In this document: positions 1 to 22,600 of the stretch, piece after piece | Layout: the number at the start of each line of letters is the position of its first letter | Position numbering within the stretch: position 1 is the first letter of the stretch | Source of the DNA: a virus | Direction: 5' to 3' (one strand) | Length of the DNA stretch: 64,000 nt | IMG/VR virus record: IMGVR_UViG_3300023296_001674 | Made by a program: the position numbers and the translations under genes | Notes under the pieces: model-generated | The model's input: the letters and a program-made list of their open reading frames with translations, nothing else | Told to the model about the DNA's origin: nothing | Database searches by the model: none

Positions 1-902
1 ATGTTTCCAGTTGTAGTATTTTCTAAAGCCAATAAATTTTTATGAACTACATCCCATTTGCATGGATGGCGTAAATATTCTGCAACTGCGCCCATTCCAT
101 CAATGCTACAACCAACACTAACTTGTTGAAATTTCTCCCACATACGAATCAATCGTTCTGGTAATTTTGCCATATTGGTGTTATATTCTAGATGAATATT
201 TTTAGCCACATCTATTTCTATACACATTTCTAAAAGATTCATATGTTCTTGAATAATAGTTGGTTCACCGCCAGTAAAATATAATCTTTTTATATGTGGC
301 AAATTTTTCATTAATTCAGTCATAACTGCGGAACTTTCATACCAATCATATGTATCATCAACAGTATTCCATTTACCACGTGCATCTTTTTCTAAAAATG
401 TAATACCTATTTTATCATTTCCGAAATTACTTTTACCATGTAACTCTACCCAATCATCATACCATTGTGTCGAATCAGCAGGTCCACAACTTCTACATTT
501 AAGATTGCATTTATTTCCAAATCGTAAATCATAATATGCTATAGGGCGTTCTGAGGCTTGTATGGTGCCATCTTCAGTAGTTATGGCGTTAGCCTCGTCT
601 TTTGTAATTAACCCCATTTGGTTGGCGTGCTGACGTTTTGAATTAGCACCAGATGCTTCTTCATCCCAACATAATTTACATGCTTCATGTTTTTCATCAT
701 TTAACATACTTTTTCTAATATCTTTAGCAATAGATGCATTACGCGCTTCTTCTACGGTATGGGTATTTCCGTTAAATATAGTTCCATCATCTTTTTTTAG
801 TATTGCTTGGTCACCATATATGCACTGACAACATACCCGCATATCGCCATTCGCTTTTAGTGAAACATGATCCCATGGTATAGGGCAATAAGTGTTAGAC
901 AT
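1..902 (-). CDS. Radical SAM protein with N-terminal Twitch/SPASM-like Cys cluster (3' end runs off the window)
   Basis: Absent from the ORF track; hand translation from ATG at 902 gives MSNTYCPIPWDHVSLKANGDMRVCC...CKLCW...DLRFGNKCNLKCRSC (CxxxCxxC) and later YFTGGEPT. Confidence 0.9.
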   Translation of the reverse strand, partial: MSNTYCPIPWDHVSLKANGDMRVCCQCIYGDQAILKKDDGTIFNGNTHTVEEARNASIAKDIRKSMLNDEKHEACKLCWDEEASGANSKRQHANQMGLITKDEANAITTEDGTIQASERPIAYYDLRFGNKCNLKCRSCGPADSTQWYDDWVELHGKSNFGNDKIGITFLEKDARGKWNTVDDTYDWYESSAVMTELMKNLPHIKRLYFTGGEPTIIQEHMNLLEMCIEIDVAKNIHLEYNTNMAKLPERLIRMWEKFQQVSVGCSIDGMGAVAEYLRHPCKWDVVHKNLLALENTTTGN

Positions 903-906
903 ATTT

Positions 907-1857
907 TTAATCCTTTGATTTACTTGCCATGATATCGAAGTTACAATGACAATAATTTTTATCACATATCACTTGTTCTGTTGGTAGGTTTAAATTTTCG
1001 TCATTGATATGACCTAAGCCACCACCAACTTTGCACCAGCCGCGATATATAGACCCGTCCATATCGATAACTATTTGTTCTGTACCAGCACCACATTTCC
1101 AACCAACCCAACTATTTTCACCTTGAGATATAAATCTATGTGGTGCCCAATTTTCCATTGTGTTTCCGTCAGAATCGATTAATGACATTGCTCCACGATA
1201 ACTTTCAAATGTTTTATCTCTAACGATCAACGCGCCGGTTAATGCGAACTGTCTATTTAATATATCTTGTTGATAGTCGGTGTATTCATATAACTCATCG
1301 CCAAAATCCACAATAAGTGGTTGCATTGCCATACTTATATTTTTAATGTCTTTCACTTTTAACGCCACGTCATAACAATCGTCAAAATGTTCAGGTGACA
1401 TCATAATATTAGCGTGAACTCTGATATCATCACTTAGATATTCAATAAATTCTAAAAAGGTGTCCACTTTTGAAAATTCAGGATGATAGCTAGTGCATAC
1501 GTGATTTATGTATGGCTTCAATTCGCTCCAATAACGCATAGTTCTTGACCCGTTCGTTATAAGTCCCACTTTAGCATTCGATTCGCTTAGAAACTTACAC
1601 AACTCCTTAAAATGCTTCCAAAGGGTTACTTCACCACCAGTGAATTCAAAATATACAATTTTAGGTGCATAATGTTCTATAACGCGGGTGCAAAATGATT
1701 TAACGTCATCAACGTCATACCAACCTACAGTGCCATCATGCAGTCCGGTGGGACAATACGAACATGCAAAATTACATGTGTTACCCATGCACCAATTAAC
1801 TACCACATAATCACCGTGTTTTTTATTTTCGTGTTCTAATTTTACATAATCTATCAT
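907..1857 (-). CDS. Radical SAM protein with C-terminal Twitch-type Cys cluster
   Basis: CNFACSYC, FTGGEVT and ITNGS motifs; C-terminal CGAG...GWC...ICDKNYCHC. Confidence 0.92.
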   Translation of the reverse strand: MIDYVKLEHENKKHGDYVVVNWCMGNTCNFACSYCPTGLHDGTVGWYDVDDVKSFCTRVIEHYAPKIVYFEFTGGEVTLWKHFKELCKFLSESNAKVGLITNGSRTMRYWSELKPYINHVCTSYHPEFSKVDTFLEFIEYLSDDIRVHANIMMSPEHFDDCYDVALKVKDIKNISMAMQPLIVDFGDELYEYTDYQQDILNRQFALTGALIVRDKTFESYRGAMSLIDSDGNTMENWAPHRFISQGENSWVGWKCGAGTEQIVIDMDGSIYRGWCKVGGGLGHINDENLNLPTEQVICDKNYCHCNFDIMASKSKD

Positions 1858-2885
1858 ATGTTTTTATCCTTAAATTTGAATTTTGCATTGCGACCAGTAG
1901 CGGCAGTTTCTGAAACAATTAATCCCATTTTGGCGGGATTCTCAATAGTGGATTTAAAAAATTTACTTTGTTGTTTTCCAAGATTGACAATATCTAAACC
2001 AATTTCGTTACGAATATCGTCAACAAGTCTATTATAGTCTTTCTTAAACGCCTCTTGATCTTCTATGATTTTAACCCATTTTTCACGCCATGTTTTATCA
2101 AACCATTCATAATCGGCAATTTGACTAATATCAAAATCCGTAACGTTAGTTAGGTAGCAACCAAGTCTAGCGCCATATATTGCGTATATTCCATTTTTTA
2201 CATCCGCGCCCACCGACATCCATATTTTTAATCTTTTTAAATTTCCATGCCATACAGTGGAAGTCATATCTTCTACTTGTTTTCCTTCATGTAAACTAAG
2301 TTTTACGCCCTCACGAAAACCGACACGAAATGCTTGAAATGGTGTAGTGTTATTATATGAAACAGAATACCAATCATTCATTTGAAAATATGGCAACTTC
2401 CAACAAAATTCAATAGCTTCATCGTCATCGGTATGCTCATGAGTATTCATATGTAAAACTAATCCTTTGGGCCACAATTTTATTCCACCATTGCCGTAAA
2501 TTAATCCATTTATATGATTTTTTCCTGCCCAACTATAAACATAATTGGGATTATATGTTATACTTTGATTAAAAAAATCCTCATCTATTTTATTATCACC
2601 ATCAATAGTAATAAAATTCATAGTATCTGATTGTCTTGCGGCATGTTTGTGTGCTTCATCGAATCCTTTGATTCCATGTATGCGTTTTGCCCATGGTATT
2701 TTACTAATTAAATTTGACCAATTTTCTTCTGCATTAGGTTCGTCATAACTTATATAAAATACATCAAAATCATTAGTTGAGGCATCTTTAATAATTTCAT
2801 CATTTGGTGTAATCGCAGGATATAAATTTTTTAATTCATCATCACGATTTTTCCATTTTTGTTGTTCTTTGGTTAACTTAGTCAT
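1854..2885 (-). CDS. Phage glycosyltransferase-like protein (GT-A fold)
   Basis: DVFYISYDEPNAEENW start, GIKGFDEAH, FITIDGDN DxD motif, YGNGG. Confidence 0.6.
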   Translation of the reverse strand: MTKLTKEQQKWKNRDDELKNLYPAITPNDEIIKDASTNDFDVFYISYDEPNAEENWSNLISKIPWAKRIHGIKGFDEAHKHAARQSDTMNFITIDGDNKIDEDFFNQSITYNPNYVYSWAGKNHINGLIYGNGGIKLWPKGLVLHMNTHEHTDDDEAIEFCWKLPYFQMNDWYSVSYNNTTPFQAFRVGFREGVKLSLHEGKQVEDMTSTVWHGNLKRLKIWMSVGADVKNGIYAIYGARLGCYLTNVTDFDISQIADYEWFDKTWREKWVKIIEDQEAFKKDYNRLVDDIRNEIGLDIVNLGKQQSKFFKSTIENPAKMGLIVSETAATGRNAKFKFKDKNI

Positions 2886-3672
2886 TATTATCAGTCCTAA
2901 TAAATTTCATTATTTTATTGTGTGTCGATATAATCATACTATTGTGTGGCAACATTAATTCAGTATATATTGTTCTATTATCAGTAAAATTAAATGTAAA
3001 CGAATAATATAATATTGATTTATCTATGCTATCCACTACAAAAAACTGATATTCAGTGCCGTGTGTAAACATATGATGATTGGTGTCGCGTTCAACCACT
3101 GTAGATATAGTTAATGATGACCCAATGTATGATATATCAATAATACTCTCATTGTTTATTTCACTTACTATATAATCCCCAATCAATGGAATCATCATAT
3201 AAAAATTTACATCATCGCCATATAACTGAATTAATTCCATTACTAATAACGAGTTATCGTCGTTGATTTTATAGTTTAACATATTTTTTGTGCCATTAAT
3301 GAATTCTGTTATCAATTCATCAACAATCACCAGTCCGCATTTTAATGTATCATCATCGTCTTGAATTTGTTGTTTTCTTGGTACAATACTACTTATGGTT
3401 TTTTCTTTGAAATGATAATACACATAGAATGTTTTTTTGATATTATATATTCCATCTTCATCATATAAAACGAATTTATTTTTTTTGATATTAGCGTTTC
3501 GTTTCCATAAATTGTAAAGTTTTATTACTTCGGGTGCTTTTGATGGCACAATCATGTACAATTCACACTGAAGCAAATAGTCGCACGGTTCCATACTTAT
3601 TTCATGTATAATTCTATTCTCGTCGGTATATACATATATTAAATCACTCATAATTATTCTCCAATATATCAA
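2878..3672 (-). CDS. Hypothetical protein (likely start at 3651)
   Basis: 264-aa ORF overlapping both neighbours in a coupled operon. Confidence 0.7.
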   Translation of the reverse strand: MIYWRIIMSDLIYVYTDENRIIHEISMEPCDYLLQCELYMIVPSKAPEVIKLYNLWKRNANIKKNKFVLYDEDGIYNIKKTFYVYYHFKEKTISSIVPRKQQIQDDDDTLKCGLVIVDELITEFINGTKNMLNYKINDDNSLLVMELIQLYGDDVNFYMMIPLIGDYIVSEINNESIIDISYIGSSLTISTVVERDTNHHMFTHGTEYQFFVVDSIDKSILYYSFTFNFTDNRTIYTELMLPHNSMIISTHNKIMKFIRTDNND

Positions 3673-4507
3673 TCATTCCATCTTTCAAAAACTTTTTGAC
3701 ATGATAATGAAATATTCCAGTTTGTCGTAATGTACCAATTTTAATACCAAGAGAATCATTAAATTCGTCAAATGATATATCGACACATCTCGTCCAATCG
3801 CCATCAAAACTTTTGCTTGGTAGAACCCAATTCATATTTTGTAATTTCATATGTGTAAAATAAGGAAAAGACACTTCGTTGAATATTGCATCGTTTTTCA
3901 TGCCAATCAATTTCAACGAAAGACCAAACGCCACATCAGTACTGAATACTTTAGGGCGTTTTTTATATAAATGTTTTTTGACATAATCGTCCCAATTTTC
4001 GCATATATCTTTCATTGTATCGAACAGTTCTTTGTTATCTTCGTGTTTTTTAAAATAGAAAAATGCATTATACACATTCGGTAGTTTATTTTTTATAAAT
4101 TCTTCACGATAAATTGTATGTGGCGGCACAATTTCACTTTTGTAATTTTTAATGGTTGATGTGAACCAAGTGTTTCTAAGTGACATATAATCCCACCAAT
4201 GACTAATATCTGTTAAAAATAGCATATCACTATCTAACATAACTGTTTCATCATATGGAGTATAATCATATAAGTCTACAATATTATGCAATTTCCAATC
4301 TGCATCTTTGGCGCGATCATTGTCCATTATTATAATTTGGTCAAATGCTTTGATATAGTGATTTGGTATATATTCAATATCAGTGACAATAGACAATTTA
4401 TTGACTCCGCTTTGGGTATTTTTTATACTCAACGCCAACGCATAAGCAAGTCTCAAATAATCAACATCTGGTGTATTTTGAACTATACATATATATCCTT
4501 TATTCAT
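3644..4507 (-). CDS. GT8-like glycosyltransferase
   Basis: TPYDETVMLDSDMLF (DxD), AYALALSIK, STDVAF, FTHMK. Confidence 0.75.
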   Translation of the reverse strand: MNKGYICIVQNTPDVDYLRLAYALALSIKNTQSGVNKLSIVTDIEYIPNHYIKAFDQIIIMDNDRAKDADWKLHNIVDLYDYTPYDETVMLDSDMLFLTDISHWWDYMSLRNTWFTSTIKNYKSEIVPPHTIYREEFIKNKLPNVYNAFFYFKKHEDNKELFDTMKDICENWDDYVKKHLYKKRPKVFSTDVAFGLSLKLIGMKNDAIFNEVSFPYFTHMKLQNMNWVLPSKSFDGDWTRCVDISFDEFNDSLGIKIGTLRQTGIFHYHVKKFLKDGMIDILENNYE

Positions 4508-5427
4508 GAATATATCTCCACGAATGTATCATAATGATGTGTCATACTTACTTTATTCATACAATGCAATGATATATTCTCAACATTGAAAAGTTGTTTT
4601 GGATTCTTCCATTGATGTGTGTGTATCATTAATTTTATTTGTTGTTTATCCACCCTATATACAACATCATTATTAGTTGAGAGAACAAATTTAAATGGTA
4701 TTTCCCATTCAGTTGATGGGATATGATTTCCATTAGCGATATATAATGCAATGCTGAATGAATAATCATTTCTATATGAATTATCACTAACTTGATATAA
4801 TCGTTGAAAATAAAAATAATTTTCTTTAATATGATTAACCACATCAAAATAATTTTTACTAAACTCACTTCTGTCAAAATATACAACCGTAGCCCAATAC
4901 ATCGGAATAGAAAAACTTCCCATTTTTTCTGTTGGATGAAAGTGTGTGTTTTTAGAGTGCGCTTTGTTAATAATAGGAATAATTATTCTATTCATCATAA
5001 TCGATGAATTCGAACCCCAAAGTTTGTCAAGATTTTTATCTTGAAAAATAAAATCCACATCGATCATGATTGTTTCATCATATATAGAATCTGTATATGC
5101 ATTAGAGCGCGAGTGATTAATCCACGTATTTGTTCCGTAGTATATTTCACCATCAGTCGTTTTTCTATAATTTTTTATTTTCTGCTTTACGTCATCAACT
5201 TTTACAAGATCGAATAACTCATTGAGCAATGCAGTTTCATTATCATTCAATGACGCCAATGATTCACTATTGGTAACTACCATTGCGTTAAATTTTGATA
5301 ATTGATATCTACCAGTTAATGCGCTACTTATTGCCAGTTTTAAATAGTTTATAATTTCATTATTATATGCGTAATATAAAAATCCGCATGTTTTTTCATT
5401 AGATTTCAACATCATCTTCCAATTCAT
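4504..5427 (-). CDS. GT8-like glycosyltransferase, paralog of the downstream gene
   Basis: SIYDETIMIDVDFIF (DxD), YWATVVYF, RNDYSFSIA, LHCMNK. Confidence 0.72.
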   Translation of the reverse strand: MNWKMMLKSNEKTCGFLYYAYNNEIINYLKLAISSALTGRYQLSKFNAMVVTNSESLASLNDNETALLNELFDLVKVDDVKQKIKNYRKTTDGEIYYGTNTWINHSRSNAYTDSIYDETIMIDVDFIFQDKNLDKLWGSNSSIMMNRIIIPIINKAHSKNTHFHPTEKMGSFSIPMYWATVVYFDRSEFSKNYFDVVNHIKENYFYFQRLYQVSDNSYRNDYSFSIALYIANGNHIPSTEWEIPFKFVLSTNNDVVYRVDKQQIKLMIHTHQWKNPKQLFNVENISLHCMNKVSMTHHYDTFVEIYS

Positions 5428-5773
5428 GCATTTTTGTTAATGTTGGCACATTTCTTGATTTTTTTAATCGTGCTAAACTCATGGCATACTTATTCAATGA
5501 TTCGGTATAACATGAACGAACTTCTTTTTTGAATTCTACTAAATTTTCTATTTTAATAGGCATGTTATGTATATCTAAAATAAATGCTGATATTTTACCT
5601 TCGTCAATGTACATAGTTAAATCAAAGAATAGAGCAGAACCCAATAAAAAATATCCACCGCTATGTGGATATATTAAATCGCCCTCGAATACTTCCATTA
5701 TTTTTTCTTTTTGATTCTCAAATATTGCCCTAAAATTAGCTTGATCTGACGCTTCTTTATATAATGTTTCCAT
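5399..5773 (-). CDS. Hypothetical protein, first gene of the GT/radical SAM operon
   Basis: 124-aa ORF with AGGA Shine-Dalgarno and an upstream promoter. Confidence 0.75.
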   Translation of the reverse strand: METLYKEASDQANFRAIFENQKEKIMEVFEGDLIYPHSGGYFLLGSALFFDLTMYIDEGKISAFILDIHNMPIKIENLVEFKKEVRSCYTESLNKYAMSLARLKKSRNVPTLTKMHELEDDVEI

Positions 5774-5803
5774 ATAATATCCTTAATGTATTAATTATAA
5801 AAC

Positions 5804-5832
5804 ATTATAATATAACTAGAATATTAAGTCAA
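5804..5832 (-). promoter_or_regulatory. Sigma70-type promoter
   Basis: Minus strand TTGACT-N17-TATAAT. Confidence 0.8.
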
Positions 5833-5838
5833 TTTGTT

Positions 5839-6750
5839 TTAATTTCCATTTGATAAACTTATATTTGTAGTATATGTAGGGGAATCTATATCAAAAGATA
5901 ATGCATATTTACTTTCAACTATTGAGCTAGTAAATGTCCCGTCAACTATGTCTGGTGGATTTGTATGCCCATCTAAAAAATTGGATTGTATTTTAATTTC
6001 TAATCCATTGCCGCCATTTGGTCCTTCTATTCCAACGCGTTGACCTAAAATAGTCCACACGCTTCCAGTAGAACCACCGGTACTACCATATGGTCCACTT
6101 AATGGTGTTATTTGTGATCTCACCAATTCTAACGAGCCGGTTAATGCATAATATTCATCACGACCAAATATTAAATCATTGCCATCAACAACTGAATCCC
6201 ATGCAGCATTTTGTGTATTAACCGCGCCGCCAGTTCTTGTAGTTGCTATACGAAATGTGCTTCCTGTATTAAAGAAATATCGTGCATGATCAACGCTTGT
6301 GAATTTTATTGTAAACACATGCTGTATATATGTACTCCAATCCAAAACTCTTGAATCAGTCAATACCGAACTTGTCGACGGTAAATTAAATGTTGGATCA
6401 GTAAGGAACCGATTTGTAGTAATATCAAACAAATTTTGTGAAGAATTTAATTTTAGAAAGAATGAAGCAACGTCGCCATCTTCCATATCTGCAACTGATG
6501 GCAAAACATCCATCAATGTAGTTCCTTGGTGATCAGCGCAATCCTCGATTGCGTTCCTCAAATTAATCCACGCTTCATTAGTCAATCCACCTCCAGGTAT
6601 TATATCTGGTATGTTACCATCAATTAATACATTAGTGGAATTTCCACCATATCCATAATCACCATTGCCAATACCAAATATTAAATTTAATTCATTAATT
6701 AAATTATTATAATCAGATGCTTCGATTTCACCACCAGTAGAATAAACCAT
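5839..6750 (-). CDS. Virion structural (fibre/baseplate-associated) protein, paralog family 1/4
   Basis: N module YNxLIxxxNxxxGxGxGxxGYGG...W..L..A..DC..HQ; C domain ARYFFNTG..R.GG...QN..W...DGTFTS. Confidence 0.7.
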   Translation of the reverse strand: MVYSTGGEIEASDYNNLINELNLIFGIGNGDYGYGGNSTNVLIDGNIPDIIPGGGLTNEAWINLRNAIEDCADHQGTTLMDVLPSVADMEDGDVASFFLKLNSSQNLFDITTNRFLTDPTFNLPSTSSVLTDSRVLDWSTYIQHVFTIKFTSVDHARYFFNTGSTFRIATTRTGGAVNTQNAAWDSVVDGNDLIFGRDEYYALTGSLELVRSQITPLSGPYGSTGGSTGSVWTILGQRVGIEGPNGGNGLEIKIQSNFLDGHTNPPDIVDGTFTSSIVESKYALSFDIDSPTYTTNISLSNGN

Positions 6751-6779
6751 TATTAATCCTCTATATTCTTACCATGTAT

Positions 6780-7769
6780 TTATAGTTCTACGATATTTAC
6801 AAATACAGCAGAGGTTATGTTAAATATGCCTATTGATCGTTTTTGTGATATTGCACTTGTAAGTATGCCATCAACGCCATCAGCCAAACCACCAACAGGA
6901 TTTCCAGGCAGTCCTAATGCATCTTGCGTTGGTCCTGTAAAACCATCGATAAATTCACATTTGATTCTAATAATAGAACCATTTCCGCCATTAATTCCTG
7001 CCGCATCGTCACGACGGGCGCTAATAACCCATTTATTTTTTTCCGCATCAATAGCAGCAGGATTGGCATAAGTAGTTGTGGTTGCGGCATATACCGTTGA
7101 TTTTATAACATACGATCCGGTTAAGCTAAAATAATCGGTGCCAGCAAATACAATAGGCGAACTACCACTTAACAAATTAGTCCATGATTGATTTTGTGCA
7201 CTGGCTGCACCACCCGTTCTCGATCCAGTTATTCGAAATTCACCACCAGTATTAAAAAAGAATCTAGCATGATCAGAATCATCAAACGTGGCAGTAAACT
7301 CGTGTGTTATTCCAGCACCAGTTCCCCATGCGGTTGACCGAACACTTGATAGTATGGTAGTAGTTGAGAAATTTGAAATATCAGAATTCAATTTATTTGT
7401 TGTTAGTTCAGTGACATTATTTGGCGGCGTTCCATTTAAACTTTCAAATAACGGTGCTGCGTTTGTGCCAAATCCAACTTCGTCGCCATCTTCTAAATTA
7501 GTAAGGAGCGGCAATGTGTTGGGTAGTGTTGTATCTTGGTGTAATGCACAATCATTAAATGCATTAGTTAAATCTAACCACTCTTCATTATTCACTATTT
7601 CACCTAATGCAAAGCTTGGTAAATCAACAGCAGCCGAAACAACATTTGCTGAATTTCCACCATAACCAGAATCGCCAGTTCCAGTACCATATATTGTATT
7701 GATATCATCTATCAAATCACTATAATTCATCGCAGTTATGGGTTTTTCTGACTCGAAATCTGTAACCAT
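6780..7769 (-). CDS. Virion structural protein, paralog family 2/4
   Basis: Same N module and ARFFFNTGG C domain. Confidence 0.7.
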   Translation of the reverse strand: MVTDFESEKPITAMNYSDLIDDINTIYGTGTGDSGYGGNSANVVSAAVDLPSFALGEIVNNEEWLDLTNAFNDCALHQDTTLPNTLPLLTNLEDGDEVGFGTNAAPLFESLNGTPPNNVTELTTNKLNSDISNFSTTTILSSVRSTAWGTGAGITHEFTATFDDSDHARFFFNTGGEFRITGSRTGGAASAQNQSWTNLLSGSSPIVFAGTDYFSLTGSYVIKSTVYAATTTTYANPAAIDAEKNKWVISARRDDAAGINGGNGSIIRIKCEFIDGFTGPTQDALGLPGNPVGGLADGVDGILTSAISQKRSIGIFNITSAVFVNIVEL

Positions 7770-7787
7770 TATATTATTCCTCTTATT

Positions 7788-9878
7788 TTAAACACCAGCA
7801 GTTATTTCTACTATAACATCATATACCGGTAACGGCTTTACAAATATATCAGTGGAATGACTGCCAGATACTGTACTAACAAATGTTCCATCAACTTCAT
7901 CGGTTGCACCCGTATGTTGATCTAGATATTGCATTTGTATTGTCACTATATTACCATTTCCGCCATTTGGTCCACCAATTGCATCAGTTTTTGCTGATAT
8001 AGTCCATTTAATAGGATTTGGTGTGTCGTATGGTCCACCTGAAATATCTTCAATTGCGTAAAATTCTACATATGATGTAGTCAATGCAAAATAATCAGAA
8101 CTTACAAATGGTGGTGGCACCGAAGTTAATAATGCATCCCATGCTGTATTTTGGGTGGTTGCAGAGCCACCACTTCTGTTAGCACTGAAACGTATATCGC
8201 TACCAGTGTTAAAATAAGCACGTGCTTCATCGTCATCGGTGAATGTTAAACTAAATTCATGAAACAGCGCAGCACTCCATGCGGTAGTTCTAGTGCTAGT
8301 ATCAATTACTTCAATAGAAAAACCTTCACCGGAGCTATTTGCGGAATTTGCTAATAATACATCATCATTTCTTCTTAAATCTTGCTCTAATGCAGGCAAT
8401 AAATCATCACCCGGTTCATTATCTTTATCGTGAGGAATTAATTCAGTGAAAAATGACACAATATCATTAACATCATCTATGCTTGATCCGAGTGGTAATG
8501 CACGTCGTGTTATTGCCACAAATCCTAAATCAGCTAATGTGGTTCCAGTTCCCTCTGCCAATGTAAGTACGGGATTTGCGTTGTCTTCTTTGACTGATAC
8601 GTTGTCTACACTTGAAGTGCCAACAGTTGTATTAAATACTTTAAGGTAGGTTGTTGTGCTTTCAGCGTAAAAAACCGCCGTTGTACTAACGCTGCCATTT
8701 GAACTATCTATTAGATCACTACCCGTAAAGAAAGTTGCTAAATGATAACCCCACACTCCCCCCACATGCTCTATTACAATACGATATTTTGTACCAATAA
8801 CAGTAGGAAAATCTGTGTAAGCGCGATTTGTATCAGTCACCTTGGTCATATCCAAATAACCACCAGCATTCCATGATATAACGTTACCTGATCCAGTATC
8901 GGTTGACCCTTCAGCCCACCCAGTCAGGTCGCTATCAAACGACCCATTAGTAACTAATTCTGAACCAAGCGCCTCGCCTTCCATTATAATTTTTATTTTA
9001 GTGTCGCCGTCATCTATAGCAGTTAATTCCGCTCCGGTTTGTGCGGTTATATCTGTTATTGCGTCATCATGATCTGATGTACGAGGGAAAGTCCCTGCGG
9101 TAAATCCTAAATCAACTAACGACGTACCAGAACCCTCTAATAATACTATATCAACCACTGTGCTACTCATTACCAATTCATTGCTTCCAGTTTCACTAAA
9201 ATTCATATTTGGTATGGCAGCAGCATTGAGATCAACCAATGCATCGCTTGCGGTAGATGTTCTCATAAATGTGCCTGCGATAAATCCTAAATCCGCCAGT
9301 GCAGTGCCAGAGCCTTCAGCCAATACTAAATCAACCGACGATGAACCAGTGGATGTCATATTTAACCTTCCGCCAATATCTGACACCGTAACATTAGGAA
9401 TAGCTTCGGCAGTTATGTCTGTTACTGCATTAGAAACTGTTGCTATTCTATCATAAGTGTCAGCGGTAAATCCAAATGGAGTAACGCCTGTTCCTGCTAA
9501 TACCAAATCATTCGTAACTGACGTAAGTTCTAGATAACTACCAACATCGAGTGCAGTTAGCCCAGGAATACTTTCATTATCAATATCTATAACTGCTTGT
9601 GCCAAATCGGCAATAGACAATGATGAAACTCCAGCAACAAATCCTAAATCAACCAGTGCGGTTCCAGTGCCTTCTGCTAATGTTATAGCAGTTAAATTTG
9701 ACGTTAGTGTTATTATATCAGTATTACTAATAGATGCTGTTACATTAGCAACACTGGCAGTGTTTATATCATCAGTTGCATCCTGCATTGATGTTCCCGT
9801 CATAGTTATAGAATCGCCATTTATTACTATGGTTTCACTTGTGGTATATTTGGGGGTATTAACGTATGCAATAGCCAT
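7788..9878 (-). CDS. Virion structural protein, paralog 3/4, with Flagellin_IN-like repeats and a CBM-like insert
   Basis: Repeated LAEGxGTALxDLGF; ELVTNGSFDSDLTGW...VDNVSVKE; C-terminal ARAYFNTG domain. Confidence 0.72.
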   Translation of the reverse strand: MAIAYVNTPKYTTSETIVINGDSITMTGTSMQDATDDINTASVANVTASISNTDIITLTSNLTAITLAEGTGTALVDLGFVAGVSSLSIADLAQAVIDIDNESIPGLTALDVGSYLELTSVTNDLVLAGTGVTPFGFTADTYDRIATVSNAVTDITAEAIPNVTVSDIGGRLNMTSTGSSSVDLVLAEGSGTALADLGFIAGTFMRTSTASDALVDLNAAAIPNMNFSETGSNELVMSSTVVDIVLLEGSGTSLVDLGFTAGTFPRTSDHDDAITDITAQTGAELTAIDDGDTKIKIIMEGEALGSELVTNGSFDSDLTGWAEGSTDTGSGNVISWNAGGYLDMTKVTDTNRAYTDFPTVIGTKYRIVIEHVGGVWGYHLATFFTGSDLIDSSNGSVSTTAVFYAESTTTYLKVFNTTVGTSSVDNVSVKEDNANPVLTLAEGTGTTLADLGFVAITRRALPLGSSIDDVNDIVSFFTELIPHDKDNEPGDDLLPALEQDLRRNDDVLLANSANSSGEGFSIEVIDTSTRTTAWSAALFHEFSLTFTDDDEARAYFNTGSDIRFSANRSGGSATTQNTAWDALLTSVPPPFVSSDYFALTTSYVEFYAIEDISGGPYDTPNPIKWTISAKTDAIGGPNGGNGNIVTIQMQYLDQHTGATDEVDGTFVSTVSGSHSTDIFVKPLPVYDVIVEITAGV

Positions 9879-11707
9879 TATAATGTCACCGTTGTTGCGA
9901 ATGTTGGGGCAGTAATTGTTAAGAACGTGCCATCTACATTTCTCATTGATATATCAGAAGTTAGCGTTCCATCTACGCTGTCTGGACCGCCGCCAGTACC
10001 AACGTGATCGTCATTATATTGCGATCTAAATGTTAAAATATTTCCTTTGCCACCACGCCCAGTGCCATCAGTTACCGTGTTGGTTTTAGCCGCGATATCC
10101 CAATCATTTGCTGAATATACACCAGTTCCGACAAAATTGGCTACACTAACAAAAGATGTCGTTAAGGCAAAATAGTCATCGCCGTCATATAGAACTGTTC
10201 CAGCAGTGGATAATAATGTTGTCCAATTTGTGTTTTGATTGGTTGCAGAGCCACCTGATCGAGAACCCGCGAGTCTTATTTGCCCACCAGCATTAAAGAA
10301 TGCTCTCGCATGATCTTGGTCTGTAAATGTAACAGTAAATTCATGACTTACGGTTGAAACCCACGCCGATCCTCTTGATTGACTTATCGAGTTAGGGTCA
10401 ACCGTAATAGCCGTACTTGCAACAGAGTCTACTAATGTTGGGTCGAGTTCTAGTTGATTTAAATTCGTAACCAATGTATCAAAATATACTTCAGCGGTCC
10501 ACGGCTTTGGGTCTTGTATTATAGAATCTAAAGGCAATGTCGGTGATAATGTAATACCTTGATGTTGTTCCAAATCTGATATTATATCTTTCCATGCATC
10601 CAACGTTACTTCACTCATACATACATCTACCGTTGGACTTGTGACGGCAGTTTGACCATACCCAGTTGCACCGGTACCCAATGCATATATCAAATTTATA
10701 TCGGTCACAAATGTAGATGTATCTACCTTAGTTCTACCGGTTGCGGATGTACCCGATCCATTTACAAATGTTGCACAATTTACATGTATGATAAAAACTT
10801 GCTGAACGGTTGAAGTACCACCATCATCTGCTTCTGTATTAAAACTGTAAACGGTATCTGTGGTTATCGAAGCAACCGTTACCGTTCCAGTTATATCACC
10901 TGATACTGCACCCAACGAAAGCCCTGTGGGCAACGTACCTAATAGCGTATACCCAGGTGTTATAGGTGCTTCAGCATCATCAACTGCCGAGATTGAAAAC
11001 CCAACAGCAGCCTCGCCTTCGCCTACAGTTCCTACAAAATCATTAAACGCCGATGCAACATTAACGGTTGGTAGGTGTAGAACTACATCTGTTCCGTTTA
11101 TTGTCAATGTTTCACCAAATGTGGTAGGATTGATAGTAGAACCGGTCTCAGTTATTGTACCAAGGGTAAAATTCATTTGAACCCCATTTATAAACATATC
11201 ATTATTTGTGGTATATGTTATAGGGAGACCGCCAATTGATCCTGTTTCTGAAACCGTGCCGGTTGCAAAATTCACAGGAACCGTATTGACTACGATACCA
11301 TCATTTGTGATATATTCAGGATCGGGTGGTACTGTACCACCCGTCAATGTTATACCACCAGTGGTAAATGTTACGGTGTCGGCATTAACAATTATTGTAT
11401 CACCTGGAAAATAGGTAGCTGCTAAAACAGTACCTTTTTGCCTCACAGATAACAATGTGCCTTGATGTCTTGCGCAGTCTTCATACGCATTTCTCAAATC
11501 CAGCCAATCACGCAATGTGATCACATCACCTAATATTTTACTAGGCAATTCCGTTATACTATTAATCCCTGGCTCCACTGATCCCGGACCTGTCGCCAAT
11601 CCACCATAACCCGATGTTCCGGTTCCTGTGCCATATGTTACATTAATGTTAGTGATTAGTGTATTATAATCAGCAAAACTTATTAATCCAGTTTGTTCGT
11701 ATGCCAT
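9878..11707 (-). CDS. Virion structural protein, paralog 4/4, with an Ig-like (He_PIG-type) domain
   Basis: Two N modules, GTLPTGLSLGAVSGDITGT Ig motif, ARAFFNAGG C domain. Confidence 0.72.
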   Translation of the reverse strand: MAYEQTGLISFADYNTLITNINVTYGTGTGTSGYGGLATGPGSVEPGINSITELPSKILGDVITLRDWLDLRNAYEDCARHQGTLLSVRQKGTVLAATYFPGDTIIVNADTVTFTTGGITLTGGTVPPDPEYITNDGIVVNTVPVNFATGTVSETGSIGGLPITYTTNNDMFINGVQMNFTLGTITETGSTINPTTFGETLTINGTDVVLHLPTVNVASAFNDFVGTVGEGEAAVGFSISAVDDAEAPITPGYTLLGTLPTGLSLGAVSGDITGTVTVASITTDTVYSFNTEADDGGTSTVQQVFIIHVNCATFVNGSGTSATGRTKVDTSTFVTDINLIYALGTGATGYGQTAVTSPTVDVCMSEVTLDAWKDIISDLEQHQGITLSPTLPLDSIIQDPKPWTAEVYFDTLVTNLNQLELDPTLVDSVASTAITVDPNSISQSRGSAWVSTVSHEFTVTFTDQDHARAFFNAGGQIRLAGSRSGGSATNQNTNWTTLLSTAGTVLYDGDDYFALTTSFVSVANFVGTGVYSANDWDIAAKTNTVTDGTGRGGKGNILTFRSQYNDDHVGTGGGPDSVDGTLTSDISMRNVDGTFLTITAPTFATTVTL

Positions 11708-13650: not shown

Positions 13651-16600
13651 TTAACATGATCCTGATCCATTCTTTAAGAAGGTAGATAGCGTGCTATCCA
13701 ATGATTGCAATCCGGCAGGTGATGCTTCCCATGAATAACCACCCGGTATAGCTTGTTTTTGTGTTCCATCTATAATTCTTGTACCACTAGGATATATAAC
13801 ATCTCCTACATTAACGTCTAAATAGTTACTTATTAGATCGCCACCAGAATCATATATACTATCCAAACCTGCACTTGTTCCACCGGTTCCACGACGAATA
13901 TATCGCAATGTGGTTCCATCACGCCTATGATATTCTATTCGTTCACCACCAATCCAAATGACACCGGGTATTTTCATTAAATCTTCATCTACTTTTTGTT
14001 TGGGCAATCCAACAACGCTAGTTATTTCCATTTCTATATCGCCAAGATTAAAGTCGGCGGCTAATGTGGTTGTTGCAGCATCGTTTATTCTATAAAATTC
14101 CCAATCTGCCACTGTAAATTCATCTACGTTTAATACTAATACAATACCACTATTATGTGTTATTGGATTGGGTCTCGTTAACCCTGAAATAGTATTATCC
14201 ACAACAGAAGTATAAGTAATAAATTCATAAGCAGGTATACCATCTACAAATGAACCAACAATTAATGCTCCTGTGGATTGCAATCCTGTGGTTTTTGTAA
14301 CAAATATATCAGTATCAGTATCAGTAAATATAGCATCCAATGTAGTCAAGAAGAATGGGCTAATGCTCTGCGATTCTCTCGCTTTTGTGCTATTTAACCA
14401 ATGTTTAAATGCGGTATTGGGTGCACCAGAAACACTTTGTGATGCTACATTGGCTGTAAATCCTAAATCAACTAATGCGGTTCCAGAACCTTCTACTAAT
14501 ATTATACTATCTACAGATGACAATATTTTCATATTTGTTCCATCAAATGATACAGATATAGGTTTTATCGCCGATCCTTCTGCTGCATTAATTACAGCAT
14601 CAGTGATATCAATTACAGCATCAGCAGGGAATACACCCGAACTTAATGTTATTATTACACCATTTATATCTATGGTTTCGCCATTATTATATGTTCCACC
14701 ATGAATATCAGTTCCTATTACTTCAAACATTTCTAACGAGTTAACACAAATGCTAATAGATTCACCAATAATGGATAATACTAATTCTTCTGGATGATTG
14801 CTTTCACTGCTTGGTTGAATAAACAGGTTGCCATCTACTATAATATCATCGGGATTTATTGGTGCGCCAGGATTTAACATTGCTCCACCATCTAAAAAGT
14901 TATCTATGTCGTCTATGTCAATAACCATTCCCGCACCGTCAACAATAGTTCCTTTGAACCCACATCCACTAATAAGTGATGCAATATCTTTCGATTCAGA
15001 CACATCGTTCGCTGGATTAATAGTTGCGGGATCGACGTCTGTTATACTAAATGGTTGTGGTGCATATAATCTTATAATACGATCCGCCGCCGTTTCATTG
15101 AGTGCGAATGTAGACAAATCCCAATTTTCATTAACACCAGAATCCCATCCAAATAAATTATCCCAACCACCACTTGCATCACAACTAACGCGATCAAACA
15201 AAATTTGAACATTGCCTTGGCGTATATTATCTGAATCTGCTATATAATTATTAAACCAATCGTTTTGTAACGAACTAGAATCAGATAAAATCGCAACATC
15301 TGCTGGGATATCTAAACTCAACACGCGTGTAATATTAGTATCTGGATCGGTATATACAGGTTTATCAAAATCAGTGACGTGAGTTATATAGTCGTCTATG
15401 CCAAAATTTTCTTTTGTTGTAAAATCACGAAGTTTTGTATGATACGGCTTTGCTTCATTTATAAACTCGATTATATTATCAGTAGTATCAGTTGTTAATA
15501 CTGGATTTTGATTAGCAGCTTGATTTAATCCAACCGCTAAAATATATGATGTTTTGAAAACCCAATCAACCAAATGTTGTTCACTGAATACATATCGTAT
15601 CATAACATAGAACATTTGATTTTGTTCTAAATTGGTTAAAATATCATTTCTTAATGCATCAATTATCACACGCAACGCTTGATCGCGACCAGATTGATCC
15701 GTGAGTGTATCAACATTTCCATATGTGCTATCAGTTATAACATCTATAAGAAATTCTATTGTACATCCTTCTTTTGCTTTTAATGCCCAAGGATTGAACG
15801 CGTCTACTGGTTGATATTGATATATCGCCCACACATTGGTTCCGTCGCTATTAGAATCACGAACGCGAACAATCATATCATCAAATGGATCAATTAACGC
15901 GTTCATTTCTGGTATAGTATCTACCGTTAATGAAGCTTCCGTGTCTTCATCGAAACCTATTTCAAAATAATCTATAATATTCCACAAATCCGCAACTTTA
16001 TATGCTTCACTATGTATTTCAGTATATATCGGTTTTTGTGTAGTAATATCTATGCCATCATAAACATAAACTTTCCAAAAACTTAATGTTTCTGTAATTC
16101 CATCTACCCATACTTGTTCACCAATGCTAATGATAGCACTAGTAGCCAAGGTATCACGTTCGGTATTATCACCAACATGATAATCATACATATTAACAGC
16201 TTTTGTGCCACTTACATACAAAACTGGTTCAACTGATGTGTTATTCAAGTTATCAAACATCGTAGGGCGATCATCGACAATACATTGATGTAACAATTCA
16301 ATGTTTATTGCATTGAATAAAATACGAATAGCCTCTTCGCGATGAACAAACCACGTTTGTCTTGGACGAATAAAGTTACCATATTTTCTACTTTGTTCAA
16401 GATTTGGGTCTGGAACGATGTCATTGTTTACATCATATCCAACCAAACTATCACGCATTTTATTCCAGAATCTATCAGTTGGTACATCACTATCATCACC
16501 ATCTCTACTTAATGCCCATTCACGATGATGATTAATGTCAGTATGTGTAATATTATAATTTAACTGATATACAGAATCGGTATTAGTTAATAGATGCTCG

Positions 16601-19600
16601 ATGCCACTAATAATGATCGCATCATTAGAAATAGGTGCAAACCAAGGAATACCAGCAAGTGTGGGATTAGTCATTGAACGTGCAATTTGTGCCACCGATT
16701 GATTTCGAGTTTTAACATTAGGAACAGTTTCACTATTTTTAACCCAGAAATAATATGATGTAACATCAAGTTTTGTTGTTCTATCTGTTATAGTCTTTTT
16801 TGTATATGGTGGATTTTCTGAAACATCAGCCATAAATGCGTCACCAGATGGTTTATATTCAAAACTTTCTTCTGGTTGATCTGCATTTTCTTCAACATAA
16901 TTTGCCCATTCCAATGGTGGAACTGGTGATTTAACCCAATCATAAACATCTATGGATTTGCCATTAATAATTGTGCCCCAGTTATTACGACGCTGTCTAT
17001 TAGAACCTTGATCATATATTGTATATTCAACCGCAGATACATCCCACCATGCTTTTCCAACATATGAATCATTCCATGACATTGTTGGATCGATTTGAAA
17101 TACCGTTTCGTCACCATCGGTGTATTTAGCTGGATCATATTCGATGCGATATGATAAATCCCCAGTAACTTGTGATGGAAATAATCCTTTAGCTGGATCG
17201 AATACACTCATTCTTGCATCGGTTATATCTTCTATATTATTATATAATATAGATTGTGAAAATAAATCAACATCTATTCTCGATGATTGTGTTCTTTCGA
17301 CATTGTCATATTCTGCTATGTCCCAACTTGCGCCATTATATACATAAACTTCCCATAATGGAACTATTTCCGAAATAGTGGTTCGAGTGTCAACATATAC
17401 ATAATCATCTGCAACGAATGTTATACTACCAAGAACGGCATTTATTGTAGCAGCATCACGTGCGGCAATATCAACAAATCTCGATTCTGTAAATACACCC
17501 AAAGTTCCATGGTGAACACCAATATTGGTATCATTTGATATAGTGTTTTGTATCACAAAACTATCACTTGATAATGCGACGAATGTTCCAGCAGTTAACC
17601 CAATTTCATTTAATACATTTTCATATGTACCAGCAACAATCCCAAGATCGGCAAATGCGGTGTCACCACCATCATCTGCAACAACCAATGATGTTGTAGT
17701 ATTCGATATTCTCAATGCAGCGCCTTCATTTACTGCAACGATATCTGTTATAAGTGCAGCAGTAATATCAGTCACTGCGTCATCAATGGTGGATACCAGA
17801 TCATATGTTAAAACACTTAATCCTAAATCTGCCAATGCGGTTCCGCCGCCTTCGGCTAATATAAATGCACTTTCACCTTCGATTACTAAACCACCAGAAC
17901 GTTTATATGCAGTAATTCCAGATACTGAAGCCAAGTTAATATCTATTATCGCAGAATCTACATCAGTTCCAGTAGAAAGTGTGATTATTGTTGCGTCAAT
18001 ATCTATTGTTTGACTATTAGTATATGTGGCATTGGCGGTTCCTAGCGCTGTGGCGGTTCCAGTTGAAAGTGTAACAGGTGTGCCACTAATACTTATTATA
18101 TGTCCATTCGTGTATGTAGCCCCAACGTCACCAATAACAGATGCATCTGAGCCAACTGTAAGAACTATGTCGGCAGTTTCTATATCAACTAATGTTATTG
18201 CGTCACCGGAGTTGTATGCACTAACATGTGGAACCAACGCGTCATTGATTAATGCTATTATTTCATCCACGGTGTCGCATATTATATCGATGCGTTGTCC
18301 GTTGATGGTTATATACATTCCCTCTATTAACTCACCCAACGATGTAAATGTCGTGCCTGTAACTTCAGTTGGTACAGTTATAACATATGAACCATTAATA
18401 TCAGGGCTAGTTCCTTCATCACTATCAATCATAACTATTTGACTGGTTATAAATCCATGATCTGCCGACGATAACACTAATGTTCCGCCATTATCCGATG
18501 GTAACACTGGTAAACTAAAGGTTAATCCAGTATCAGTATAACGATATACCATAAAACTGTTATTATATCTTACCATAGGATCGTCGTCATTTATATCATT
18601 TGGGTCATTAATATCATAATAATTGCTTATATCATCAACCCAAATTAAATCACCAAACGCTAAATCTATTGCGGTTAATGTTATTTTTTGCGTATCGAAT
18701 ATTTCATCGCGTTCTTCTATTGTATTCACGTGATAAGTTACTTCATCATCTAACACATAACCACCAACAGAAACGTCTGTTCTAAATAAATATGAAGAAT
18801 TTTTAGATCGAATTTCTGCTGTTGGTGTTCTATAAGGAAAACGAGCAAGACCATCAAACGGAGGTCTAGTTATCCAACGATCATCATCGGTAGTCATTTC
18901 TATTATATCATCAAATTTACTATCAGGATTTTCCGCAGTTGTAAAATCTATGAAATTAATCATTTGTGGTTCTGCACGCCATTCTTCTTCGAATAACGAG
19001 AAACCTATTTGTGCAAAATCTTGAACAGCACCATATTCTCCCAATCGCAACGCCCATTCTTCAAATATGGTAATATCACCAGAATCATCGTCGCTATTAC
19101 GGAATAATTTATCAATAACTAATCTAGTTCCTTTTTCGCGAATGAAACCTTGATAGAATTGGAATTGGGTGTCACCACTCATTCCCAAACCAGTGAGATA
19201 ATCACGCTCTTGGAATCCTATCAAACGCCTTGCGGATGATTCTAATACAGTTCTATCTACGCTATTTTCAATAGAAAAATACTTTCTAATATCATTTACT
19301 GATTTTTCAAAGTTTGGTGTTAGCGTATTTCCAGTTATTATATATCCAGGAGCATCATATTTACCATCCCATCCACCCGCACGCGTAGTGAATACTTTAA
19401 GCCTATATTGGCGAAGGTTGAGTAATGGATTGTATATCAAATCATTAAATATAGTGCTATTACTAAATGTTATTATGTGTTCATATTCGGTGACAAACAA
19501 TCTAGCAGAAAATATATATCTACCATTAATTGGAACCACTAATATGGTATTATCATCATCGCGTGATATAAATGTATCTTCTGGTTGAATCACTCTACCA

Positions 19601-22600
19601 TCACGGTCTAATAAACTATAAACGCCGTTTATTATTTGTTCCATATTCGCAACAATTCCATGATCACTTTTAAACTTAACACGTTCCGCAAGTGGACTAA
19701 CAACCATTAATGAACCATCGTCCCAATTACCTTGTGACCAAAATAAGAATTGCTTACCAGATAAACTCCAATCGTTTTGTTCATTTTGATCATAATCAAA
19801 TCCATCAAATATCCATCCTTTTGATTCAAGATATATACCATATCCTATAAGAAAATCATAAAGACTTTGTCTCGAATTGAATATAGTGCCATAAGGAATT
19901 GTATTAACGGTGTCTTTATAATCAGACGATTTCAAAACACGAATAGTTCCCACCTCGATGGCTATTTGACGCGAGCTTTTAATAGGAATATTCATTGTAA
20001 ATACTGGATTTAATGCATCGTATCCATTTACAGTCCATCCTGTGCCCACACGTTCTATAATAACGCCACTATATAGCTCTTCGCGTATACTAGGTGAATT
20101 GTATAGCAAAGTAGTTACATCTTCCTGTGGAACAACGCCGAAGTTATCTGCCACCACTCTAGTTGAATTGGTATTGATAAATCCACCCATTTTATGAGCT
20201 AATCTAACATCAATATTACGAATAACATCACCAAATTTACCAGTTATAGATTGCCCATTAAATGTAACGTAATTGGTAATCCATTGTTGGATGCCATCAG
20301 ATAGAACAACTTCGCCGCTATCCAATGTTTCACCATGAACATATAGTTCACTTAGACGTAATCTATCACGAGTTTCGTCGCTGATCCATTGTTTATTCGT
20401 TTGTGTACCATGTGCATAACTATATACATTAGAGTTCCAACCCAATTCGATAAATCTGGATGGTTTCATCAAGTAACTTATTTGAGCTATCGCAAACGAC
20501 CATCCCTCGCTGCGTCTAAACACCGATTCAGCAGGCCCATGATCACCAATTTCCCAATCTGCGCGTGCATCATTTACGCCGGGCTGTGAAACTATTCCAA
20601 GAGCAACAGGGTCTAACAACATACCAGAACCATTAACAGGTATGGTCACATCCGGTCTTTCATATTTGGCATATATTCCAGCACGTGAACCCCCCGCAAT
20701 ACGCCCAGCTTTCATATCATTCCATAAAAATGTATTGCTGCTTGTATATGGTGCAACACCATATCTATCGTTCCACCATTCTGGTGTTTGGCTAAATCCG
20801 AACATTTCCCAAGGGTGTGTGTTAGGACGATCCGTGTCATAACAAAATTTATATATGCCGCGCCAATAACCAGGAACGCCTTGTTTACTATAGTTCCATG
20901 TAAATGGGTCAGTGGGTGAATATATAGAATTTTCAGATAGATTTATATCATTAAATACCGCCCATCGCTGTATTATAGGAGTTAATAATTTATTGAATTC
21001 TACTACCGAATATTCGCCGACATTATGATTAGTTGTATTATATATAGTCCAATCAAAATCTGGTAGATTTTCGGTTTTGTAATCATCAGGTATGGTGTTA
21101 TATATATTGTTTTCAAAATCCAAAATAACATCATCACGAAAATCGTTATACGCTATAACTATACTGCCGTCATGCATTTGTAATACATTCTTGGCTGGTG
21201 AATAAGTGGAATCAAGATATATACCGGGTTTGTATACTTGATATATACCCAATCTACTCGGACTTGATGGATGATATGTAGACTCATCGTTTGCGCGGAT
21301 ACCCATTCCACTCAATGAAAATGGAAAATCATTTATTTTTCCTAAATTAATAGAATCTAATGCATCTTCAACCCATTCAGAAGGAGCTTGTGTATCAGAA
21401 TGTATACCATCGTTGTTATATTCAGTTATCTTACGTAAAAATTTATTTCTAAATCTGATGTACTCACGTTCTACATAACGCACCGATAACATAAAATCGA
21501 TAGCTCTATCACTCCCTAATGCTAAAGTTTTCAATAGCGGTGTGCGGTGTTGTAATATCCATTCACCCACTGAACGATCCTGTGTGGTATCTCTCCAGTT
21601 ATTAGCACCATTTGGTGTGCCTATCAATCCTACTTGATTATTAATAACACTTGTAAAATGAGCAAAATAATCACTATTAGCAATGTAATCAACTTCAATA
21701 TTGTCTGGGTTGGCAGTCAAGTTTATTGGTATTTCATATGTTACGTCTTCGATATTATTATTACTGTAGTAATATATTTTTATTATATCAGACTTAATCA
21801 ATGCGTTATCGAAAATAATATTTTTACCACCCACTGTCCAATTGTCAAATTGTTGGATGCCATTAATATACACATCAATTAAATTCAAATCGGTAGGTTC
21901 GGTTGATAATGTTACAATATTAGTTGTTATATTAGAAAAATTCTCAATAATACGTTGATTGCTTTCCTCAATCCTAACATTCCAACCATTATTATAATTA
22001 TTCATGACATCATCAATATTCCGAATATTGTAATAATAATACCCAACTTCTTCTTCTTGTGGTGTATTGAATGAATATCTATCAGTTACAAGATGATTTT
22101 CAAATATAATTTCACTAAAATCATTGAAAGTAAGTGGAATATTTAATACATCATCCAATGGTTGTCGAGGGTCATCATTTAATTGATATCCGAACACTTT
22201 GCCACCCACGAAATTACTTAATGGGTATTCACCAGGGTCTTGTAATTTAATAGCATTTGTATCGTATAATTGAAACAATGGATATTGATTGGTTGTTAAT
22301 TTGCTTTGAGATTCCACCCAAAAATCTTCACTATCACTCCAATAATATGTTATACCTTGATGTGTAACACCCAATAATATGTTTATTTGATCTCCGTCTA
22401 TGGGTGAGCCATCCTCGCTTTGACCGTCTGCAACCAACGTCAATGTTATACCACCGCCTACACCAACGCCATTTATTTCAAATACTCTATTCTGAAAAAC
22501 AGTCGTTAATTGTATAAACGTAACATTACCAGTACCAAGTTCGCCAACGTCAACCAATGGTTCTACAAATGTCATTATTTTTCCTGACAAATCAATATCT

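Follow-up and report, generated by a model that had tools for sequence, protein, structure and literature searches.

Complementary half-domain arrays in two overlapping phage genes: a possible two-chain form of a nested FliD-like stalk

Split genes are well known, and in chaperone-usher donor-strand complementation an incomplete fold is completed by a segment from another chain. Among phage structural proteins, the sheath insertion domain (InD) of Vibrio phage XM1 resembles domain D3 of FliD, according to the XM1 authors (PMC10457771). Here we describe two adjacent genes found in a 64,000-nucleotide stretch of DNA (the window, to which all positions below refer) from a 194-kb IMG/VR virus record, IMGVR_UViG_3300023296_001674, which is labeled "provirus" and has a CheckV completeness of 51%. 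Their products, p609 (609 amino acids [aa]) and p696 (696 aa), carry complementary orphan halves of a small FliD-like domain together with the two separated modules of a phage protein family. The pair very probably represents a split gene by origin. The best single explanation, which we consider plausible and to which we would give a probability of roughly 0.55 on the strength of domain architecture and structural models, is that the two products reassemble in trans. The more specific model, a five-level FliD-like nest cut at its tip in which the heterodimer would complete four half-domains plus the split base as an antiparallel zipper, has in our estimate about an even chance of being right.

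Architecture of the p609/p696 gene pair

The p609 gene (9878 to 11707) and the p696 gene (7788 to 9878) are adjacent on the minus strand, which holds all the genes from position 1 to ~33,000 and hence every feature located in the text. Both open reading frames (ORFs) are intact. They are joined by a TAATG stop/start overlap (9876 to 9880, with the p609 TAA at 9880 to 9878 and the p696 ATG at 9878 to 9876), a coupling already pointed out in the initial annotation of this DNA, and a Shine-Dalgarno-like GGTGA is found at 9886 to 9890, 7 nt 5′ of the p696 ATG. The identical ORF pair with the identical 1-nt overlap was present on five contigs from separate assemblies, one of them of 570,549 bp, so the split is not an assembly error. 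Pfam and PHROGs searches with p609, p696, and the two paralogs p303 and p329 returned no family, and neither p609 nor p696 matched a Pfam entry at E ≤ 0.1.

The paralogs p303 (303 aa; 5839 to 6750) and p329 (6780 to 7769), recognized by a search of the phage's own record and by hidden Markov models (HMMs), consist of an N module and a C module in a single chain. When p303 was compared with its own record, the N terminus of p609 was matched only by residues 1 to 79 (the N module) and p696 only by residues 80 to 297 (the C module), while the C-terminal part of p609 was matched by residues 13 to 299, i.e., the whole unit. This pattern indicates that the two parts of one family unit reside at the N terminus of p609 and the C terminus of p696, respectively. 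It bears out the initial annotation, in which p609 had been credited with an extra N module and p696 described as lacking that module and resuming at a sequence that matches the paralog.

The N+C family comprised 514 proteins at E < 1e-3 in an exhaustive search. They are ~300-aa proteins of tailed phages, and their Atlas clusters are 100% viral with no Pfam assignment. In the phage GenBank collection only a distant match was found, a hypothetical protein (RsoM2USA_417) of the Ralstonia jumbo phage RsoM2USA, all neighbors of which are also hypothetical. The AlphaFold2 model of P0003, a 436-aa member with the order N-(A+B)-C in a single chain (A and B being the two halves of the FliD-like domain), shows N (two helices) and C (a sandwich with helices) at a predicted local distance difference test (pLDDT) score of >90. 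Fold searches with the N+C unit gave no Foldseek match at E ≤ 0.001 and a best VIA hit of Z 6.4 to the CspB protease domain, the likeness of the C module being only to generic jelly-roll/beta-sandwich folds. The N|C junction is an insertion hot spot, occupied by one A+B domain in P0003 and by PF16190-type domains in P0016, P0019, and P0022. In the chains examined, every full-length C module other than that of p696 has its N module in the same chain. A candidate second orphan C module, P0027, lies on a 910-bp JGI contig (3300009537), is 52 to 58% identical to the p696-type C module, and begins exactly at the C boundary; it adjoins a bacterial-type solute-binding gene and then loses frame, and it was rejected as a fragment, probably a chimeric or decayed piece.

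HMMs built from the intact A+B domains of other, unrelated proteins resolved p609 into N[1-87], three A halves, N[320-389], and C[393-609]; a fourth A half was seen by eye and with an HMM of outer A halves. The orphan N module (aa 1 to 87; 11447 to 11707; paralog search and HMMs) is a helical hairpin that retains the invariant GYGG and HQG motifs. It is followed by the four orphan A halves (aa 97 to 222; 11042 to 11419, about where they had first been placed), each a beta-hairpin plus linker strand, with ~33 aa per repeat. This region scored 22.9 bits with the outer-A HMM, derived from genuine AABB modules (see below), compared to 6.8 bits for the best of 1,000 shuffles, and the weak-scoring A halves of p609 are therefore not a chance match. 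Next comes a putative immunoglobulin-like (Ig) domain of the He_PIG type (aa 223 to 312; 10772 to 11041), assigned by similarity to P0011, a 626-aa protein that shares 56% identity with p609 across 98% of its length and is the only p609 orthologue found. Residues 252 to 314 of P0011 match He_PIG (PF05345; E 3e-9, 37.6 bits, cutoff 24), and the corresponding region of p609 is 60% identical. The chain ends with a complete second family unit, N′-C′ (aa 320 to 609; 9881 to 10750; search, HMMs, and subfamily profile), of the He_PIG-associated subfamily, and its stop coincides with the natural C terminus of all family units, aligning to the last residue of P0012. The last 110 residues of p609 are ~82% identical to P0012, a paralog located among the replication genes of the relative phage that carries P0011. 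This exceeds the typical orthologue identity between the two phages and suggests frequent exchange or conversion among C modules.

The same HMMs read p696 as A[10-28], B[29-83], B[92-133], B[147-202], B[209-262], a further B in two pieces (269-301 and 423-454), and C[459-693]. The protein thus starts with an intact FliD-D3-like A+B domain (aa 1 to 80; 9639 to 9878), which would be the innermost one, at the tip. Four orphan B halves (aa 81 to 138, 139 to 199, 200 to 259, and 260 to 453, the last with an insert) follow at 8520 to 9638, again close to the positions of the initial annotation, scoring 27 to 65 bits each. The orphan C module (aa 459 to 696; 7791 to 8504; paralog search and HMMs), a jelly-roll-like sandwich, keeps the invariant W, R, and FFN-type motif. 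The insert of ~130 aa in the fourth B half (aa 303 to 435; 8574 to 8972) falls outside the predicted interface with p609. It has >60 homologues, aligned with p696 residues 300 to 445, in otherwise unrelated proteins of 120 to 2,200 aa and no Pfam name; Laminin_G_3 and DUF642 are among the domains adjoining these homologues. It is probably a lectin- or carbohydrate-binding-module-like beta-sandwich, that is, a nest within the nest.

In module counts, p609 has 2 N, 1 C, 4 A, and 0 B, and p696 has 0 N, 1 C, 1 A, and 5 B, so that the two together balance exactly for both A/B and N/C. The HMMs and the shuffling control thereby uphold the initial description of four orphan A halves in one protein and one whole A+B followed by four orphan B halves in the other, and the leftovers are complementary (4 A versus 4 B, 1 orphan N versus 1 orphan C). 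The subfamilies are also informative. In a BLAST profile of 78 family members, the first N module of p609 and the C module of p696 both are of the P0003/P0023/p329 type, while N′-C′ of p609 is of the type that always comes after He_PIG Ig repeats (P0012, P0059, P0025, P0013, and P0034), a difference that fits an inserted foreign piece. Every family-invariant interface residue is kept in the orphan N of p609 and the orphan C of p696.

Fold and nested order of the A+B domain

The A+B domain is a unit of ~70 aa composed of a beta-hairpin, a helix, three strands, and a short helix. As a single-chain control for the half-domain logic, we modeled an AABB nested module of 174 aa (17608 to 18129) from the 3,446-aa protein encoded in the window, using an alignment of seven homologues with 32 to 49% identity. 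The model reached a pLDDT of 93.2 and a predicted template modeling (pTM) score of 0.77, with the outer A/B pair as confident as the inner one. FliD D2-D3 ranked top in both Foldseek (E 3e-3, probability 0.89) and VIA-align (6iwy_A, Z 9.3, root mean square deviation [rmsd] 2.1 Å over 77 residues at 21% identity; 5h5v_A, Z 8.3; 5h5t_A, Z 7.9), where Z values of 8 to 9 are barely above the stated background of the tool, though the two programs agree and one family dominates the list. Matches to both FliD domains at once (6kty_A, 117 residues, Z 8.3; 5h5w_B, 120 residues, Z 8.1) span model residues 16 to 172 at an rmsd of 5.5 to 6.5 Å, indicating that the domain orientation differs from that in FliD. 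Matches to single FliD domains begin at model residue 23 to 26. After the outer hairpin, the next strand is incorporated into the inner-domain sheet, which explains the 10- to 13-aa extension seen after every orphan A half. The next-ranked structures were insertion domains of phage sheath or baseplate proteins (A-1(L), XM1, and PhiTE; 8kee, Z 7.0; 7kh1, Z 6.9; 9cb9, Z 6.5). At the sequence level, Pfam Flagellin_IN was matched below threshold by 2 of 21 A+B domains (E 0.045), and an A+B profile gave no significant match among PDB sequences (best E 0.39); the alignment of the 21 domains was too variable to serve as a scan query.

Within the 194-kb record the modules are confined to this gene cluster. 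Every single chain examined except p609, P0011, and p696 has as many A as B halves, in nested order. The order is AB in P0003, P0009, P0010, and a gp6-like wedge protein and AABB in five fibers of ~900 aa, in the 3,446-aa protein of the window, and in a 4,082-aa protein. The only unbalanced chains are p609 (4 A), P0011 (4 A), and p696 (1 A, 5 B). P0073, considered as a possible B-only array, was rejected since it proved to contain seven complete tandem A+B repeats with divergent A halves.

Deeper and shallower arrangements were also encountered. A giant protein from IMG/VR (L013, positions 1 to 9240) has the order A[AB′{AAABBB}B″]B, five levels in one chain, and in the 3,446-aa protein (13651 to 23991) the AABB module is itself enclosed by another interrupted module. 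Single copies of the FliD-D3-like domain are inserted in the gp6-like wedge (aa ~560 to 640) and in the sheath-like P0010 (aa 227 to 305). Its distribution is that of a mobile decoration shared by several virion proteins.

Assembly in trans and alternative explanations

The preferred reading starts from an ancestral single-chain baseplate or fiber protein in which the helical hairpin of N packed on the beta-sandwich of C, with a stalk of five serially nested domains emerging at the N|C junction: N-A1A2A3A4(A5B5)B4B3B2B1-C. The 3′ part of a He_PIG-type paralog (Ig-N′-C′, with its own stop) would then have been inserted between A4 and the innermost domain, i.e., at the tip, creating two translationally coupled ORFs. 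Reassembly in trans would proceed by docking of p609 N (aa 1 to 87) on p696 C (aa 459 to 696), through the GYGG and HQG motifs of the former and the FFN-type motif of the latter, and every p609 hairpin would supply what one p696 B half lacks, with an antiparallel register in which hairpin 1 meets the last B half and hairpin 4 meets the first. The product would be a two-chain out-and-back stalk carrying the Ig domain, the second unit, and the intact A+B domain at its far end, with the lectin-like insert near the base.

This arrangement was modeled as a complex of p696 81-696 (alignment A4, without lectin-like fragments) and p609 1-225 (alignment A2). The interaction score ipSAE was 0.69, 0.67, and 0.70 over three runs and 0.00 in all three controls; a score at the 0.69 mark was attained by 58 of the 80 solved complexes and by 2 of the 110 mismatched pairs used for comparison, counts that hold only roughly here because our own alignments were used. 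The runs share at least 29% of their contacts, and docking of N on C was predicted in all three. In the best run, with 598 confident contacts, the interface involved residues 9 to 43 and 65 to 95 (N module) plus all four A halves of p609. On p696 it comprised, in the numbering of the cut piece (to which 80 is added for the full-length protein), residues 12 to 223 and 353 to 374 of the B array and 378 to 438, 470 to 478, 513 to 517, 558 to 560, and 595 to 601 of the C module. Cut-piece residues 224 to 352 stay outside the interface, and the coincidence of this gap with the lectin-like insert is the reason why we read the numbers as cut-piece numbering. The tightest pairs (expected error, 0.8 to 1.0 Å) link G33/Y34 and H81 of p609 to family-invariant positions of the C module (cut-piece 477-478 and 437-438). 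In the model, the N-C joint is thus made by the two motifs that are best conserved in the family. With N docked on C, the connectivity of the chains dictates an antiparallel register: the A array starts 10 residues past N, and the B array stops 5 residues short of C.

Several observations weigh against this reading. The pLDDT of the partner was 48, 44, and 73 in the three complex runs, and the A-B zipper was confident in just one of them, the other two being those with a partner pLDDT of <50. Split-gene halves are apt to score well in this kind of test through their likeness to intact relatives, and the A-to-B register derives from connectivity instead of being read off the model. The p609 A halves are divergent, scoring 7 to 15 bits with the canonical A HMM. 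Moreover, P0011, encoded on a syntenic 247.8-kb contig (ENA ERZ24794644), keeps N and four A halves without a B partner: the p329 orthologue begins 17 nt 3′ of P0011, with no p696 gene in between. The N module (68%) and the A array (60%) of P0011 are as conserved as the remainder, which may mean either that they work without B halves or simply that the deletion was recent. Orphan B arrays were not found in any other protein, in searches that were lossy when based on a word index (one missed P0011 despite its 184-bit pairwise match to p696) and that covered the remainder of the relative via protein databases only. Nor did searches of IMG/VR with P0011, or of JGI metagenomes with a p609/P0011 alignment and with p696, retrieve further relatives. 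The initial annotation had proposed an obligate antiparallel heterodimer that completes four domains plus the base. The complementation itself retains the support of the complex model (ipSAE 0.69 versus 0.00), tempered by the single confident zipper, but the pairing cannot be called obligate given the P0011-bearing relative, a syntenic phage without a p696 gene at this place and with no orphan-B protein found elsewhere.

The relative phage has been assembled repeatedly (six contigs, three of >200 kb), with genes for products of 3,457, 50, 200, 348, 626, 327, 301, 125, 305, and 287 aa, onward in that order. P0011 is a chimera, p609-like from residue 1 to ~497 and p696-like from ~498 to 626, p696-like down to the last residue, with shared indels; the switch falls at the conserved QNT motif of the C module, within the most conserved family motif. 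P0011 is exactly what a single unequal crossover joining the two C modules of such a p609/p696 pair would yield, and the opposite course, an insertion, would need orphan arrays of matching number to have arisen twice. These sequence comparisons favor the view that P0011 arose by deletion from such a pair.

The chief alternative is that the insertion broke the gene without subsequent reassembly, the two products working separately with their intact parts only. p609 would use Ig and N′-C′, and p696 the A+B domain, the lectin-like insert, and C, the orphan halves being flexible or loosely folded linkers. The repeatedly assembled relative, which has only the chimera P0011 and no B array, is in line with this, as is the low partner pLDDT of two of the three complex runs. 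Against it, the orphan B halves still score 58 to 65 bits with the intact-domain HMM, the half counts match exactly, the orphan N and C keep all family-invariant interface residues, and N-C docking was seen in all runs with controls at zero. A lone C module would, in addition, presumably expose a surface that N covers in all relatives. We regard this possibility as doubtful, if the most serious of the competitors.

A quite improbable alternative is that the A and B arrays are independent structures, for example, homo-oligomeric beta-hairpin stacks, the 4:4 and N/C matches being coincidental. P0011, with N and four A halves but no B halves, could be cited in its favor, and so could the p609 A repeats, which have their own 33-aa period and have diverged from canonical A halves. 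However, A-only or B-only chains were not found beyond p609, P0011, and p696, the seemingly B-only P0073 having turned out to consist of seven complete A+B repeats. The p609 repeats are, moreover, recognized by an HMM from the outer A halves of true nested modules, and an outer A half of this kind belongs, in the AABB model, to a confidently folded pair of domains with FliD D2-D3 topology. Lastly, a sequencing or assembly frameshift or a read-through stop, with a single 1,305-aa chain being made, is highly improbable and was rejected: the p696 frame is open for 25 codons 5′ of its ATG and a fused chain would likewise be a balanced nest, but p609 stops exactly at the natural terminus of the family unit, the same ORF pair and overlap recur on the five contigs, and a Shine-Dalgarno-like element precedes the p696 ATG.

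Genomic setting and comparison with known systems

Upstream of the gene pair lie the genes for the 3,446-aa protein, the gp6-like baseplate wedge (23991 to 27800; phrog_10646, E 0), and a gp5-like hub/lysozyme (28291 to 30351), as well as those for a 200-aa protein (phrog_11259) and a 348-aa fiber-like protein. The portal and major head genes are located farther on. These neighbors would place the pair in the distal baseplate/fiber block of a very large contractile-tailed phage. On the 570,549-bp contig (ENA ERZ27315719, k141_202852) the p609/p696 locus is found at 470 to 478 kb; the phage genome may be far larger than the 194-kb record, or this contig may include host DNA. Directly 3′ of the fiber genes (1 to 5800) there is a conserved glycosyltransferase-like and radical SAM block, syntenic in the relative contig, where Radical_SAM Pfam matches are recorded. 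These may be genes for the modification of virion or surface sugars.

If p609 and p696 do reassemble, they would exemplify a natural mode of heterodimerization by serial half-domain complementation, in which a new tip module (Ig plus second unit) has been grafted onto a baseplate-anchored stalk without refolding the stalk. The locus would then be a clear case of a phage remodeling its host recognition hardware, a paralog piece having made two coupled proteins out of one. For the "Russian-doll" growth seen in FliD-like insertion domains of phage virion proteins, the locus supplies a testable rule, the order AⁿBⁿ up to five levels, and the relative without a B array provides a natural control for what the stalk is needed for. 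The hairpin/half-domain pairs could become orthogonal tags for protein assembly.

Compared with the described systems, the domain and its nested growth are of known kinds, and the breaking of a deep nest into two coupled chains is new. The N+C unit family accommodates p303, p329, the C-terminal part of p609, and the unit composed of p609 N and p696 C. Among naturally split proteins, p609 and p696 are typical in that they are homologous to contiguous parts of a single-chain protein, P0003, and are encoded by adjacent, overlapping genes. They differ in that five units (four half-domains and the N/C base) would be completed at once in a predicted zipper, in that the break would stem from insertion of a paralog piece and not from simple fission, and in that P0011, the orthologue of p609 in the relative, has no p696 neighbor. 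The insertion domains of phage sheath and baseplate proteins (Vibrio phage XM1 InD, cyanophage A-1(L), and PhiTE) are the same small decorating domain but are single complete domains in one chain; to our knowledge, neither half-domains nor complementation between chains has been described for them. FliD D2-D3 and the flagellin outer domains remain the closest in fold, and FliD shares the out-and-back logic in which a loop of the outer domain accommodates the inner one. In contrast to FliD, p609 and p696 are phage structural proteins without D0/D1 coiled-coil segments, and the phage nest, up to five levels deep, is here broken into two polypeptides.

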